Source: a virus (taxonomy: Duplodnaviria; Caudoviricetes). From it: a DNA stretch of 64,000 nucleotides. Positions 15,302-21,300 of the stretch are shown here, piece by piece (the first letter of the stretch is position 1; each line of letters starts with the position of its first letter). The notes beneath the pieces were generated by a model, which did not search any database, was not told the DNA's origin, and saw only the letters and a program-made list of their open reading frames with translations. Where the stretch lies: positions 58,815 through 122,814 of the IMG/VR virus record IMGVR_UViG_2936984999_000001; one strand, given 5' to 3'. Position numbers and translations under genes: made by a program.

Positions 15302-18300
15302 ATGCCTAATGAAGATTTTAGTATAAAAACTGGTATAGAGGTTGATGATAGTGGAGTCAGCCAATTAAAAAGTATTGCTGATGAGCTTGAAAAAACAGCG
15401 AAAGCTTTACAGAAAATTAATAACGTAAAATTTAATGGTGATATTTTCTCTGGGTTGACAAATGCAGGAAAAAATATTCAAAACGTCACTAAAGAGATTG
15501 ATAAATTACAGAAGTCTGCCAATGGTGCTGGAAAACCATTAACCAACATTGGAAAAGGCGCAGAAAGTATTGTTTCAGGAAACTCAAAGCAGTTTACATT
15601 ATTAGATTTAACTTCTATTGATGTAATTAAATCAAGTATGAGTGAAATTGCTGCTTCTGCTCAAAATCTTAAAGAAGCATTAGGATCAGAAGTTACTTCC
15701 GGATTAATGACTCAGATTGATGCTATGTTGGCGAAAAAAGATGAGTTACAGAATCTTGCGAATATTTTAAAAAGCAATAAGGAAGATTTAGGTAAAGCTG
15801 CGAAAGCAACTGGAAGTAGTAATAAAAAATCTGCAAATAACACATCATCTTCCACTTCTACTAAAACCCCAAAATATATAACTGATCAGTCTTATGTTGG
15901 TGATTATAAGACACTTGCAGATAATGAAGCTTTTGTTCATACTCTTAGTACGTTTAGACATAATACAACAGAAGCTCAAGCCGCCATAGAAGAACGAAAT
16001 AAAGTTATGGCAAGAGTAAACGCAAAAACACCACAGAACACTTCTGAAATAAATGCAAAGCAGAGATTTGATGATATTGATAAGACTATCACAGACAATC
16101 TTAGTAAATACGGAGATCGAATTCAGAGCGCTTATAATGCTTTCGACAAGATAAAGGCTGACAAAAGTGGCATCGCTGGAATTGAAGATGTATTTAAATC
16201 CAGTGAAGAACAGATAAACAAATGGGCTACTGCTGTCGCAAAAGGCAAAATGAGCATTGGTGAATTTGAGAAGAAAGTCAGTGGGCTAAGTGGATCTGTT
16301 GGCAGTATTGGTAAAATCATCGATCCTGCAAGTATTACAGATGCAAAAGGTGAATTGGAAAGTTATCTAAGAGAGCTTACCAATGTACAGGATATTACCT
16401 TTAGTGGATTTACAGAAAAAAATGGAATTGTTTCACTCAAAGGTACATTTAAGGATAGTGCCGGTGAAGCGCAGACTTTAAGTGTTCAATTAAATACACT
16501 GAATGGACAGATTAAAAATCTTGGAACTTCTGTAAAACCTGTTGAAAGTGGACTTAGCAAATTCTTCTCAGGTTGGAAAGAAAAAATGGTAAACCTTGCC
16601 CAATATTTGACTTCATTCCAGGCAATGAATCAAGTTTGGAATACGTTCAAACAAGGTTTAGAAATAGTTAAAGAGTTTGATACTGCTCTTACAGAAATGC
16701 GAAAAGTATCAGATGAGCCGATCAGTAAGCTAAAAGAATTCCAAAAGGAAAGCTTTGATATGGCAAAGAGCGTTGGTACTACTGCTCTGCAGATCCAGAA
16801 TAGTACGGCCGATTTCATGCGTTTGGGACAGAGCATGGAAGAGGCAAAGCAGTCCAGTATGAATGCTAATATTTTAAAGAATGTTTCGGAATTCGATAAT
16901 GTCGATGATGCAACTTCTGCACTAATTTCTATGCAAGCCGCATATAAAGACTTAACACAAACAGAATTAATTGACAAACTAGACAATATTGGAAACCGGT
17001 ATGCTGTAGCTACTGACGAGCTTGCAACTGGTTTACAGAAATCCGGTGCTACGCTCAGTTTAATGGGAAATAATATTGATGAATCCGTGGCGTTATTAAC
17101 TGCAGCGAACAGTCAGATTCAGAATATTGATACCGTGGCAGCCGGGGAAAAAGTAATTTCTTTGCGTATCGCAGGTAGGTTATGCCTGAACATACTGGAA
17201 GGTATGGGTGAATATTTATATTTACTGGTTGATAACTATATCGGTGGAGGTCTGGGGACAGATAATACCGAGGTAAGACCTATATTTATATAGGAAACCG
17301 TAACGACTGCAGGATGTGTGTGGTAACACATGTGTTGAAGTTATCCGTCCTTTTTCTATAAGGATGTAATATACAGTCTGAACAGCCGAAAGGCTCTTTT
17401 ACATTTCTTAGTGTAATCGTCACGCAATAATCCAAAATTTTATGAAACGTGAGACATAGGTAGAAATTCCTATGCGCCATATTTATATGGTTGGTAAGGT
17501 TTGTGATAAACCTGAAAGTAACAACTTGACAGAAGAAGCAAAGAAAGAACTTGAAGAGCTTGGTGAAGACACATCTGACTATGTTGTCGCAACTAAGGCA
17601 AAGAAGCAACAAATTATTAAGGATTATACTGCCGTAGCTTCTAATGGTGGAAAAGGTGTAGATATTCTTGATGCGAATGGTAACTATAAAAACATGTTCG
17701 AGATCATGAATGAAATCGGTTCAATCTACGCAGAATTACAAGCCGAAGATAAAAAGTATGGCGAAAATCGAAGTATGGCACTTATCGAAGAGTTAGCCGG
17801 TTCTAACCACAGTTTTAGCCGGATTATGTAGAAATGCATAATTAGAACATATTTAATTGCAGGTAAAGCCTTATGCTTTGCACCACAATAATGGAGAAAT
17901 CACATTATGAAGGTTTAAAAACACAAAGATTGGCAGATCTGCAGCGAAGCACCCTAACGTATTCCGTAGATCGTACGGTACTTGAGCCGAGGGTGAACGT
18001 TCACAGACTATTCCCATATAGGGAATCAGAAATATCATTATTCGATGATTATAAAATAAAGGTGGAAATCCTGAATATCTGATTCATTAGAAGTACGGCG
18101 TAATCGCAAATGACGTTGGTGAAAAGCCATTAAATGGAAACGGTATGCTTGCTGCTCTTTTGGGCGTGAGTAAGAAATAGTCGAAACTGACATGAAGAAT
18201 GTCAGATATTTTTTTGTATGGAGAAAAATTAAAAATGGATAAAAAATTTGATAAAGAATATTCAACACAATGGATTAAAGAAGTTAAGTGGCTTTCATGC

Positions 18301-21300
18301 CATAATGTTCGCTTTACGTTCGTAAAAAGAGATACGAATGGAATAACAATTTATAAATATAAAAAAACACATCAATTATTTTCTGCACTTGCAGAATTTT
18401 ATTGTAGAAATGGAGATTGACATAGTAGTGACAGAATTAAATAATGAAATTGAAAACAAAATATTAGAGTTATTTGATAAGGGATTGAACATAAAAAATA
18501 TCAATAGTGAATTAGGACTTGCTGATGGTGTTGTAACAAAATGTCTAAATAAACACGGAATTACAGATACAGGTTGGAATAACCCATCAAAAAGATATTA
18601 TTCGAAATTAACGGATGAACAAAAAAGAGAAATCGAAGATATGTATAGGGATGGACGACTGAAAGAGATTTTAAATATACATCCTACGTTAGAAAAGAGT
18701 TTTCTATATAATTTAATGTCAAGAAACAAAATAGAAAATGGCAAATATTTCTGGACCGAAGAAGATACAAACTATTTGAGAGATAATATTGGTTTGGGAT
18801 ATGATAAACTTTTTAAATATTTTTCTGGAAGACATACTAAAAAAGCCATAGAAACTAAAGCTAAGAAAATGGGATTAGCAAAACCCCAATATTGGACTGA
18901 AGATGAATTGAATATAATGAGAAAATACTATTCAACTATTCCAAAAGAAGATATTAAAAAACTGCTTCCAAATAGAACATGGAATTCTATCGTATTAAAA
19001 GGTAGTAATTTAAAAATAAAATCTCACCATTACCTTAATGAAAAATATTCTGAAAAAGAAGAGAATTTTATAAAAGAAAATTTTGGTAAGATGACAGATG
19101 CTGAAATTGCAAAAGCTATAGGAAAAACAATCCATGGAGTATGTGATAAAAGGCGTTTACTTGGTTTATATTATTTTGATAAAAATTATTCTAAATATAA
19201 CGATATTTCAAAATTCTTTCGAGCGCATATCTATGATTGGAAAGAAAACTCTATGAAACAATGTAATTATCAATGTATATTTACAGGCTCTAAAGATTAT
19301 GCAATTCACCATATAATAAGTTTCAACACTATTCTCTCAGAATTCTTTTCATATATTGAATCTAAAAATCTTTTAAAATCCAATAATTTAAATGATTACT
19401 CAAAAGAAGAACTTGATAATTTAATAAAAATATTTAATACAGTACACGACAAATATCCACTTGGTATTTGTGTACGAAAAGATATACATAATTTATTCCA
19501 TAATATTTACGGAAGTGGTGGAAACACAAAAGAACAATGGGATATATTTTCAGAAAAATTTTCAAATCATGAATACGACAATTTAATAGCGTAAATTTTT
19601 ATCCATGCAAAAAATATAGAGATGTGTTGCGAACATCTTTTAATAAAATTGAAAAACAGATCCAACGTTGCTTCAGCTATACTTAACAACTATGATTTAT
19701 TAGATAAAGTAAAGTCTGATTCTGAGCAATCTTCTGGAGCGGCACAAGAGGAAAATGAGAAGTATCTTGAAAGTATTGAAGCCTCCATAGCCCAACTTCA
19801 AACACAGCTCCAAGAGCTTGCAACAGTAACAATCAACAGTGATATGTTTAAAGGCGTAATAGATACAGCAACTGCCTTTCTTAACATCGTAACTCAGATC
19901 CTGGATAAACTTCCACTGCTCTCAACAGCAATTGGAGGATTCGCAGGATTTAAACTTTCACAAGCAGGTCTGGGTAAACAGCTTAACATAAACCATAAAG
20001 CTAGTTTCAATTCAAAATTTTATCGTAGTTAAGATGCCCATTTGATATGCTGCTGTCATAATCGCGACAGTTAGTATAGAACTTGTTCAAGATGGTGATT
20101 CGACACCTATTGACAGACCTTTAGCCTTAGAGCTATAAAGCCGAATATCGGAGGAAGCCGTAATCCACATCACTGTGGTACCTTAGTTCTGAAAATGAAT
20201 GAAAGGGATATATTGAAGATGGTAGTTCCGACACGTTAGCAAACACATATGTTTAAATTTACAAAAGTGGATGATAAAATTCACGAATAAAACGCAATTA
20301 TAACAGGAAGAAAGAAATAGAGAGCAGAAAGTTGCAGGTAACAACTCTCCACTCTCTTAAAAGACTAAAAGGAGATTACAAAAATATGAACTAAACTATT
20401 TATTATTTTGGGTGTCATCCTTATAGAATTCTCCAGACATGTCAAATCCTTTCAGAAATCCAAAATGGATGTGAAAGTTTTTCATGTTCTTAGATGGTAT
20501 TCTGCGGATTAACGACCATAGGATTAATAATCCTACAAGAGTTAAAACGAATAGAAATACATCTTCCATATCTCACCTCCTTCCTGTACGAAAGTATCAA
20601 GAAAGAGATTTGATGTTGGGGAGAATCCCATAGAAATGAATATAATATTTAGAGTACTTCATTTTAGACAATCTCATTTCTGGTACAAATTGCGTACCAT
20701 TAATTCAGTACTACATGACGACTGTCAGATATACTGTCGTGCAGCGGATCACAATGTAGACCTGTGACCACAAGTATATCTGACTTTGATTGTAGTATAA
20801 TTGTCCATTTTTGTAAATCCAGAACATATGTGTTTTCATGTAAAAGTGTAGTTTTACAGTTAACGTGCGAGAGGCTGACAAGGCGTATTATGTGTGACGT
20901 TACAACATATAGTACAATATACAGTCCAACCAGGGAAAGCCTGGGTAGCATGATGGGTCGAATAGTATAGATAGAACCGTGAGGTTACTACTCTCCTACT
21001 ACCTGAAATGCACTAACTGCACACATTCACCACGGCTTGCAAACGTGGTGTTTTTATTATTTTATTGAAAAAGAAGGTGAAGATTTTTATGCATATAAAA
21101 ATTTTTGATTGTGATATTTTCATTGATACTCACGAAATATCAATAAGTGATCATTCTGGTGAAAGCAGTTATAATTCATTTAATAAAAAACCTATTGACA
21201 CATGTGTTATTAAAGAAATTATAGAAGAACACTTATTATTTAATACTTCCAAAAGATTTAATGATCTTATTACTCAAGGCGAAGGTTTAATTGCGTAATT

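Follow-up and report, generated by a model that had tools for sequence, protein, structure and literature searches.

The tape-measure gene of this phage is interrupted by a group I intron whose P6 loop contains, on the minus strand, a gene for a 57-residue membrane protein that has its own promoter, a long structured leader and its own terminator. We consider it rather probable that this arrangement is an autonomous moron-like unit, placed backwards in the intron loop and expressed from a translationally locked mRNA resembling those of type I toxins. An own promoter and terminator within a late operon, the mark of a moron, are both present. The gene, its signals, the fold of the leader, the protein family and the orientation of the cassette are established by the results given below. 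The window analyzed is a stretch of 64,000 nucleotides of the IMG/VR record IMGVR_UViG_2936984999_000001, and all positions refer to it.

The open reading frame at 20396-20569 (minus strand) encodes 57 amino acids, a transmembrane (TM) helix followed by a conserved β-hairpin (FHIHFGFLKGFDMSGEFY), and was confirmed as a genuine gene by comparative sequence evidence. The preliminary description of this DNA had pointed to the same frame and had made its proposal depend on conservation, which was found: the frame is intact in 13 related contigs, including protein copies at 79% and 42% identity. The more distant copy, in contig L024, has 58 residues and a 3-nt in-frame indel; although this part of L024 has changed more rapidly than the ribozyme core, the frame stays open. 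The frame is also open in L040 (79% identity) and L041 (93% identity). Ratios of dN/dS between 0.06 and 0.37 (Nei–Gojobori) were obtained, with 9 synonymous and 4 non-synonymous changes between the window and L041. In ten other contigs the peptide is 98–100% identical to that of the window, which is no evidence on its own because the whole block 19791-21058 is 96–99% identical across the same contigs. An AlphaFold model (mean pLDDT 74) places a helix at residues 2–26 and the β-hairpin at residues 29–48. From the earlier proposal of a TM helix followed by basic residues the helix could be retained, whereas a basic C-terminal tail is confined to the window clade; distant members end in an acidic or polar C-terminus.

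A profile search assigned the peptide to an unnamed family of proteins of 48–61 residues with 24 representatives at E≤1e-3. They share an N-terminal TM helix and a subsequent β-hairpin of the pattern K-x-x-K-x-F-H-I-H-F-G-x-L-K-G-F-D-x-S-x-S-F-Y, and occur in Lachnospiraceae phages and prophages, the latter with copies in the genomes of Kineothrix and Lachnospiraceae bacterium A4. Searches of Pfam, NCBIfam, PHROGs and the PDB with the peptide gave only chance-level hits (for example Imm32, E 0.011), Foldseek comparison of the AlphaFold model with the PDB gave no match at E≤0.001, and the ESM Atlas returned unnamed clusters only. In a phage GenBank collection, blastn of 19600-21300 found no match. 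As far as these searches reach, the small-protein family and its structured leader RNA appear to be undescribed.

Most family copies oppose the direction of the flanking phage genes. The cassette is antisense to both neighbors in the window, in L042-45/50/53/54/56 and in L046, L047, L051, L071, L073 and L075. The tape-measure gene adjoins or hosts it in the window clade, in the L042 type, in L051 and probably in L073, so that at least four contexts lie beside or inside this gene. Complete relatives of 205–222 kb carry two to three tyrosine recombinases each. Two loci were counted against the favored reading: in L049 the gene is co-oriented with its neighbors and has a short leader only, and in L046 it adjoins a RusA-like gene instead of tail genes.

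Expression signals were located at both ends of the gene on the minus strand. The −35 hexamer TTTACA (20812-20817) is separated by 17 nt from the −10 hexamer TACAAT (20789-20794), and the transcript is predicted to start at the base of leader helix P1 (about 20782-20784). In a σ70 scan this promoter scores 10 of 12 matches; the scan alone is not above chance in the window (17 sites compared to 17.1 expected from shuffles). Of the 15 cassettes of the family, 11 have a promoter of like quality at positions −242 to −252 relative to the start codon, and distant members share this position as well as the leader with the window cassette. The hexamers are unchanged in L024, L040 and L041 with a varying spacer, and the −10 box is aligned in all 14 leaders (TATAAT or TACAAT). 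A ribosome binding site GGAGG at 20580-20576 precedes the ATG by 6 nt. Downstream, a 3′ UTR (20358-20395) leads to an intrinsic terminator (20309-20357) composed of a 17-bp hairpin at 20357-20319 and a U-rich tail, the sole terminator-like site within 19500-22600. Its consensus folding energy (alifold) is −25.5 on the minus strand compared to −13.0 on the plus strand owing to many G⋅U pairs, and its pairing is kept by one-sided changes in L022 and L040. The folding model thus predicts termination in the minus-strand direction only. Promoter, ribosome binding site and downstream hairpin had all been named in the preliminary description, and each is found at its place.

Between the predicted transcript start and the ATG extends a leader of about 215 nt, in good agreement with the structured leader proposed earlier. 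Its 5′ domain (20699-20784, minus strand) is built from two helices, the outer P1 and the inner P1a, and its CUACA loop is complementary to a downstream UGUAG, with which it can form a pseudoknot. In alignment A4 of this domain 95.4% of cells are paired and 19 of 29 pairs have changed on both sides; none of 500 shuffles reaches the A4 value, and slid controls give 22–42%. The covariance model R1 scores 72.1 bits at the window leader and matched nothing else in the 122.8-kb record; the 5′ domain was likewise not found upstream of P0011, P0017 and P0023. Support for the pseudoknot comes from one covarying pair inherited by one clade, and the counts of G⋅U and A⋅C, only 12 and 7, were weighed against the favored reading.

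The 3′ domain of the leader (20570-20698, minus strand) contains a GGUAC..GUACC hairpin at 20682-20698, followed by AGAAAUGAGAUU, a GGGAUUCUCCC hairpin and a helix that sequesters the Shine–Dalgarno (SD) sequence. In the latter, an anti-SD strand (20598-20610) pairs with the SD strand (20575-20586), and the resulting hairpin has −19 to −33 kcal/mol in 13 of 13 leaders. Consensus folding of the leader gives −54.2 on the minus strand compared to −41.6 on the other strand, with folding z values of −3.2 to −6.0 across the leaders. A possible anti-anti-SD pairing has −10 kcal compared to −5.6±2.2 for shuffles. In the distant clade a 3′ UTR motif UCAGUAGR pairs with the leader segment UCUACUGA, and L046, L048 and L056 preserve this pairing through compensatory changes. 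The corresponding 5′–3′ UTR pairing of the window clade is weak (−7 to −11 kcal) and is therefore not claimed for the window. In L070 a small TM protein of another kind follows the same 5′ domain, which thus has the character of a module. Neither any Rfam family nor, among the riboswitch aptamers of Rfam 15, any model matched the leader (window region at E≤10, eight family loci at E≤1). In bacterial genomes the leader is rare (2 of 151 genomes of the family searched) and seemingly confined to phage DNA.

The intron that houses the cassette extends from 19976 to 22458 on the plus strand, with P1 at 19971-75/20036-40, P10 at 20019-35/22459-76 and the ωG at 22458. The 5′ strand of P6, CGUUAGC (20234-20240), directly follows a Q-like element AGUUCCGACA (20224-20233), and the 3′ strand GUUAACG (20859-20865) directly precedes an R-like element GUGCGAGAGGCUGA (20865-20878); P7 (GGCUG, 20873-20877) comes next. 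P7, P8 and P9 covary among six relatives. Rfam models gave no match to this intron, and covariation settled no model for P3–P5; the assigned elements are Q-P6-R-P7-P8-P9. The order Q-like, P6, R-like is that of the Rfam-aligned introns of the same window, which supports the placement in the P6 loop proposed earlier. An inverted repeat of 31 nt brackets the cassette (plus strand), with a left arm at 20241-20271 that contains the palindrome ACATATGT and a right arm at 20804-20835 that overlaps the −35 hexamer and the region upstream of it. As L040 lacks the left arm and conserves the right one, the long stem is dispensable, and its interpretation as a universal closing stem or as transposon ends was rejected. 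The sequence ATAATGCAAGTATA upstream of the 3′ splice site was also considered as a repeated phage promoter and discarded, as it occurs once.

The intron is not part of what defines the cassette. Only the window clade carries it within an intron; in other phages the same cassette and leader occupy ordinary intergenic gaps. It is therefore not intron-specific, and the earlier idea that addiction or regulation is tied to the intron was not supported. P6 loops of phage group I introns are known to house ORFs, for example I-TevI in the td gene of T4. As there, the same ribozyme site houses a gene with its own expression signals. Unlike I-TevI, however, the cassette lies on the antisense strand, occurs also without an intron and encodes a membrane protein instead of a homing endonuclease: no nuclease domain (LAGLIDADG, GIY-YIG, HNH and others) was detected in the peptide, which is antisense and carries a TM helix.

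Taken together, we favor the following course of events. A host-type σ70 promoter would give a transcript of about 470 nt, the first 215 nt or so of which would form a multi-helix leader with the pseudoknotted 5′ domain and, after it, a long pyrimidine:purine helix. This helix would bury the SD sequence and in many members also the start codon, and the mRNA would therefore be translationally closed by default. The purine tract behind the GGUAC hairpin could pair with the anti-SD strand and open the SD sequence. The product should be a 57-residue bitopic membrane protein with an amphipathic β-hairpin. If the terminator is active only in the direction of the cassette, tail-gene transcription would pass through, and the tail-gene transcript, as pre-mRNA and as excised intron, would cover the cassette mRNA in full as its antisense. 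From this arrangement we infer timing, silencing by antisense and function: synthesis of the protein would take place while the late genes are silent (lysogeny or early infection) and would stop once these genes are expressed. The protein would then act at the membrane in small amounts, either as a growth-arresting or as an entry-blocking effector.

The preliminary description had suggested the plus-strand intron RNA or a short plus-strand RNA as natural antisense. The first part stands, since a cassette in P6 necessarily makes the intron RNA a full-length antisense of the cassette mRNA; the systematic antisense is probably the host operon transcript, which in the window takes the form of the intron RNA. 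As to the second part, a comparison of 15 family cassettes showed no conserved dedicated antisense promoter with 10 or more matches out of 12. The only plus-strand candidate in the window (20252-20280, 9 of 12 matches, convergent on the 3′ end of the cassette) is lost in L040, and distant members show no conservation beyond the terminator.

The position at the tape-measure gene also suggests a superinfection-exclusion moron similar to HK97 gp15: made in the prophage state, it would block DNA entry of phages with a matching tape-measure protein and be co-inherited with that gene. We regard this as rather unlikely. [quoted passage not shown] This gene is at the same time a positional precedent for the moron-like unit favored above. 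The cassette resembles it as an independent promoter-gene-terminator unit in the same genomic slot, encodes a small inner-membrane protein and would be expected to be expressed in the prophage. That at least four independent contexts place it beside or inside the tape-measure gene, and that sequenced Lachnospiraceae have prophage copies, also fits. Further, the last 185 nt of exon 3 (the hydrophobic tape-measure segment) and the cassette are linked in the block 19791-21058, which travels as a whole among mosaic relatives, but exon co-conversion by intron homing explains this co-inheritance equally well. In contrast to gene 15, the cassette encodes an unrelated protein, belongs to a Gram-positive host, runs antisense to the tail operon, carries a long regulatory leader and, in the window phage, is housed by an intron. 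No similarity to gp15/YebO or another named exclusion protein was detected, with no Pfam or PHROG match among 22 family members, and some members do not lie near tail genes. A heavy translational lock would be unusual for a constantly needed protein, and by the positive-inside rule the hairpin of the window protein should face the cytoplasm, away from the incoming tail.

A true type I pair, in which a membrane-damaging toxin is held by a constitutive short plus-strand RNA or by the intron RNA and stabilizes the phage genome or aborts infection, is an unlikely explanation as well. The architecture speaks in its favor. The product is below about 60 residues (57, with the helix at 2–26) and bears, in the window clade, a basic tail; an AGGAGG-type SD at 6 nt is sequestered in a predicted mRNA fold that blocks translation, a 5′-terminal hairpin starts at +1, and the terminator is strong. 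Known hok mRNA has a 5′–3′ fold-back element, and the 5′–3′ UTR pairing with compensatory changes in the distant clade resembles it. Type I toxins of Clostridioides difficile prophages show a hydrophobic N-terminus, a charged tail, an AGGAGG ribosome binding site and long-lived mRNAs (PMC7699646), and the cassette shares features with them. Like txpA/RatA, bsrG/SR4 and yonT/SR6 of Bacillus subtilis and CD0977.1/RCd11 of C. difficile phiCD630-1, all from prophages of Firmicutes, it is a small phage-encoded single-TM protein whose mRNA has a strong hidden SD, a stable-looking 5′ hairpin and a strong terminator, and antisense transcription would cover the gene. Unlike these, it has no sequence or RNA-family similarity to them and no dedicated antitoxin promoter was found; its leader, with about 215 nt and a pseudoknotted domain, is much longer. 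The conserved part of the protein is the β-hairpin with its HxH and not a charged tail; the positively charged C-terminal tail described for such toxins (PMC7699646) is confined to the window clade, the C-terminus of distant members being acidic or polar. Searches of Pfam, NCBIfam, PHROGs, the PDB and Rfam gave no significant homology to a described toxin or antitoxin. For an antitoxin RNA, the convergent plus-strand site at 20252-20280 could be invoked; its absence from L040, the 15 cassettes without a conserved antisense promoter and the unconserved flank beyond the terminator argue against it. If no antisense existed besides the late transcripts, nothing would hold the gene in check in a lysogen. 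From the type I toxin architecture claimed earlier, the small TM protein and the long structured leader hold.

Two further readings start from the leader. According to the bolder one, which we regard as quite unlikely, it is a new sensing RNA (a riboswitch or a processing-activated switch) that gates a new family of membrane effectors in gut Lachnospiraceae phages. With the cassette placed antisense in a self-splicing intron of the tape-measure gene, as in this phage clade, cassette mRNA and intron RNA could silence or disturb each other, which would couple tail-gene splicing to the lysogenic or early state. The other, in which a riboswitch-like leader senses a ligand or signal and the peptide is a small membrane protein with a regulatory role instead of a toxin or an exclusion factor, appears improbable. 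It can draw on a 5′ domain of about 100 nt with a junction, a pseudoknot and strong covariation, followed by a platform of mutually exclusive pairings, and on the modular use of this domain in L070. A precedent is given by C. difficile, where 58-residue membrane proteins, stated to have no homologues outside this species, are under control of a c-di-GMP riboswitch (PMC13724677). There too, in a member of the Clostridia, a small membrane protein stands behind a long structured regulatory leader, but the cassette leader is not c-di-GMP-I/II by Rfam and the cassette is phage-borne. No riboswitch family of Rfam 15 matched, the element is rare in bacteria (2 of 151 genomes, seemingly phage DNA only), riboswitches do not show a 5′–3′ UTR pairing as a trait, and no ligand can be proposed. 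Finally, a chance ORF whose conservation reflects the structure of a plus-strand P6 extension could invoke the near identity of the ten contigs and Watson–Crick helices that fold on either strand, but is extremely improbable, being already contradicted by homologous cassettes with the same leader outside any intron, by dN/dS far below 1 with an in-frame indel, by the fast-diverging but open L024 frame and by terminator and SD helices that need the G⋅U pairs of the minus strand.

The known gene repertoire of gut Firmicute phages grows with this cassette by a small-protein family and a structured leader RNA, both undescribed; proteins of this size class are usually missed by annotation. As an independently regulated antisense gene that encodes no nuclease, the cassette represents a new kind of cargo for the P6 loop of phage group I introns. 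The leader, whose fold is supported by covariation and whose SD helix is switchable, lends itself directly to RNA biochemistry. The recurrent backward placement, often at the tape-measure gene, points to a testable design in which the protein would be made only while the late genes are off, and it bears on how temperate or plasmid-like jumbo phages may protect their hosts or be retained in them.

The ORF is 98–100% identical in 10 related contigs, which carries no weight because the entire block 19791–21058 is 96–99% identical in the same contigs. This block, whose flanks are mosaic, holds the end of exon 3, the ribozyme core, the cassette and a terminator at 21030–21055, and from 21058 to the 3' splice site the cargo of the relatives varies in content and length (1.4–4.4 kb). 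In the window the intron holds two further minus-strand cargo genes, for a proteasome-subunit-like protein (21270–21860; PF00227, E 8e-6) and a zinc-ribbon protein (21842–22405; phrog_2546). The distant copies L041, L040 and L024 decide the matter and indicate that the minus-strand ORF is a real gene. Block and peptide identities amount to 90% (nucleotide) and 93% in L041, 73% and 79% in L040, and 78% and 42% in L024. In L024 the ORF is the most diverged stretch of the block, yet its frame remains open for 58 codons, a single 3-nt indel leaving the phase intact, and the adjoining RBS is unchanged. The frame of the peptide gene proposed in the preliminary description is thus conserved in all three copies, and dN/dS (Nei–Gojobori) is 0.06–0.37 in all informative pairs, with 9 synonymous changes per 33 sites and 4 non-synonymous changes per 138 sites between the window and L041.

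By profile comparison the window peptide belongs to a family and is no orphan. A word-based search revealed close relatives only; the profile search of 1.84 billion representatives yielded 24 proteins of 48–61 aa at E<=1e-3. In every member a TM helix at the N-terminus precedes the motif K-[DN]-x-K-[DE]-F-H-I-H-F-G-x-L-K-G-F-[DE]-x-S-x-S-F-Y, and AlphaFold with the family alignment predicts a helix (2–26) and a beta-hairpin (29–48) at a mean pLDDT of 74. No match to the family protein was found in Pfam, NCBIfam, PHROGs, PDB sequences or PDB folds. Members are located in a prophage-like region of Lachnospiraceae bacterium A4 that holds a tape-measure gene, in viral contigs and in a MAG of Kineothrix.

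The cassette runs against the genes on either side of it in the window clade, in the eight loci of the L042 group and in the loci L046, L047, L051, L071, L073 and L075. In L048 it is convergent on just one side, and in L049, where the leader is short, it is co-oriented with its neighbours. A tape-measure gene is host or near neighbour in the window clade, in L051 and in the L042 group (YomN-like chaperone plus PhageMin_Tail); the L073 cassette is probably near or within such a gene, and that of L046 adjoins a RusA-like gene instead. In HK97 this slot at the tape-measure gene is taken by the gene 15 moron, a unit with a separate promoter and terminator whose product is a small exclusion protein of the inner membrane (PMC3594210). 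From its placement across these loci, the cassette is an independent module that entered the intron loop in one clade and is no feature of the intron. The tie between cassette and intron suggested initially is therefore not borne out, since homologous cassettes occur in other, non-intron contexts.

The source IMG/VR record comprises 122.8 kb at an estimated completeness of 55%; complete relatives of 205–222 kb carry two or three tyrosine recombinase genes. Distant phages possess unsplit tape-measure homologues of 1600–2700 aa, with which four pieces in the window align collinearly: 15302–17170, 17472 to ~17805, 19652–19975 and a 2717-aa ORF starting at 22456. Two further introns, neither matched by Rfam's model, break the same gene. 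That at 17171–17490 and the cassette-bearing intron have the AAUAUACAGUC element in common; that at 17806–19650 has canonical R and S elements and houses a 401-aa ORF with HTH and HNH-like PHROG matches.

The borders of the third intron were derived independently here. U19975 is the last base of the 5' exon, UGGGU is paired to GCCCA (20036–20040) with a U.G pair at the 5' splice site, and the adjoining 20019–20035, including a perfect 14-nt inverted repeat, is complementary to 22459–22476. The terminal G is that of the apparent start codon (22458), and the exon junction keeps the frame. Splicing at G22458 is supported by three observations: TTTAACTACGATAAA, which supplies the 3' exon strand of the long P10, is nucleotide-invariant in 10 relatives (L014–L024 equivalents) whose downstream tape-measure proteins are only 36–55% identical; the preceding "start" is ATG or TTG with G alone constant; and the 2717-aa ORF has no SD. 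The ORF tail that seems to continue past the proposed 5' splice site (19976–20032, KQLNINHKASFNSKFYRS) has deletions of 7 nt (L022, L023) and of 12 nt, 8 nt and larger sizes (L024, L040); with its frame lost, this stretch is noncoding intron. The exon 3 end AGGUCUG (19966–19972) is also perfectly complementary to intronic CAGACCU (20113–20119), separate from the P1 pairing. ATAATGCAAGTATA (22420–22433, 25–38 nt upstream of the 3' splice site) occurs once in the window, is kept in all relatives and could be either a 3' element of the intron or a promoter serving the downstream exon, a point relevant to trans-splicing.

The Rfam group I model gives no match to the cassette-bearing intron and aligns two other introns in the window, in the canonical order P4' (Q), P6, J6/7-P7 (R), P3', P8, P7' (S), P9. 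The cassette-bearing intron can be read in the same order: Q-like AGUUCCGACA (20224–20233), a 7-bp P6 helix (20234–20240 with 20859–20865), R-like GUGCGAGAGGCUGA (20865–20878), P8 (20885–20915), S-like AAUAUACAGUCC (20916–20927) and a GAAA-type P9 hairpin (20930–20944). Covariation is seen in P2, P7, P8 and P9 among six relatives. The assignment to a P6 loop was right, as the ~620 nt between the P6 strands hold the cassette. A 31-nt inverted repeat (20241–20271 and 20804–20835) flanks it; the left arm is missing from L040, so that its stem is not essential. Both arms contain the palindrome ACATATGT (20243–20255 and 20822–20834), and the right copy lies close upstream of the -35 hexamer of the cassette, so that it may bind a protein.

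The signals described earlier were all located, including an SD (GGAGG) 6 nt upstream of the ATG. Taken alone, the promoter TTTACA-17-TACAAT is uninformative, since 17 promoter-like sites, itself included, occur in 3.1 kb, as many as in shuffles. Of 15 family cassettes, 11 have a promoter of this quality between -242 and -252 relative to the ATG. The hairpin 20357–20319 is the sole terminator-like site found in the 3.1-kb scan. Owing to its many G.U pairs its folding energy is -25.5 kcal for the minus strand against -13.0 for the plus strand, where no T run follows; it should stop the cassette transcript and let tail-gene transcription pass.

Leader conservation reaches far past the window clade, and the -10 box lies 212–222 nt from the ATG in 13/13 leaders compared. 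Outer and inner helices, an optional hairpin and a CCACA loop able to pair with downstream UGUGG (CUACA/UGUAG in the window clade) make up the 5' domain. In its alignment A4, 95.4% of cells are paired and 19 of 29 pairs show both-sided changes; 0/500 shuffles reach the observed pairing and covariation, and slid controls pair at 22–42%. The covariance model R1 of this domain recovers every copy in the two main clades and has the cassette as its sole match in the record that contains the window; its matches are rare in bacterial genomes (2 of 151 genomes of the family searched). One bacterial match, L070, lies upstream of a different TM protein, indicating that the domain acts as a module. This locus (L070:1501–1880, Lachnospiraceae-family genome) combines the 5' domain (45.8 bits) with an anti-SD/SD helix; its 60-aa protein starts with TTG and is unrelated to the cassette peptide.

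The 3' domain is built from two hairpins (GGUAC..GUACC and GGGUUCUCCC), a purine tract and a long pyrimidine:purine helix. This helix buries the SD (-19 to -33 kcal), and UUCUCC is additionally paired with the first codons in many members. The purine tract could pair with the anti-SD strand, with matching clade differences (GAGAUU/AAUCUC vs GGA/UCC); as the energies beat shuffles by just 1–2 sd, this pairing is graded possible. The leader's UCUACUGA pairs with the 3' UTR motif UCAGUAGR in the distant clade, where L046, L048 and L056 carry compensatory changes; such pairing is weak in the window clade. Rfam 15 holds no family for any leader part.

Given the recurrent backward placement, the surrounding operon transcript, here the intron RNA, is antisense to the whole cassette. 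A harmful protein is favoured by the heavy translational lock and the hok-like end pairing, an exclusion protein by the genomic slot and tape-measure linkage, and a sensor by the modular, pseudoknotted 5' domain; the data fit toxin, exclusion protein and signal-controlled effector alike. A classical type I toxin-antitoxin pair is weakened: the opposite strand of the 15 family cassettes has no conserved site of comparable promoter quality for a dedicated short RNA, and the basic residues noted after the TM helix are replaced by non-basic tails in distant members. The parts demonstrated are a promoter of host type, an mRNA locked against translation, a terminator active in one direction and a small bitopic protein whose hairpin is conserved. 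The cassette would be expressed while the late genes are off and silenced once they are on, and its product would act at the membrane in a dose-sensitive manner.
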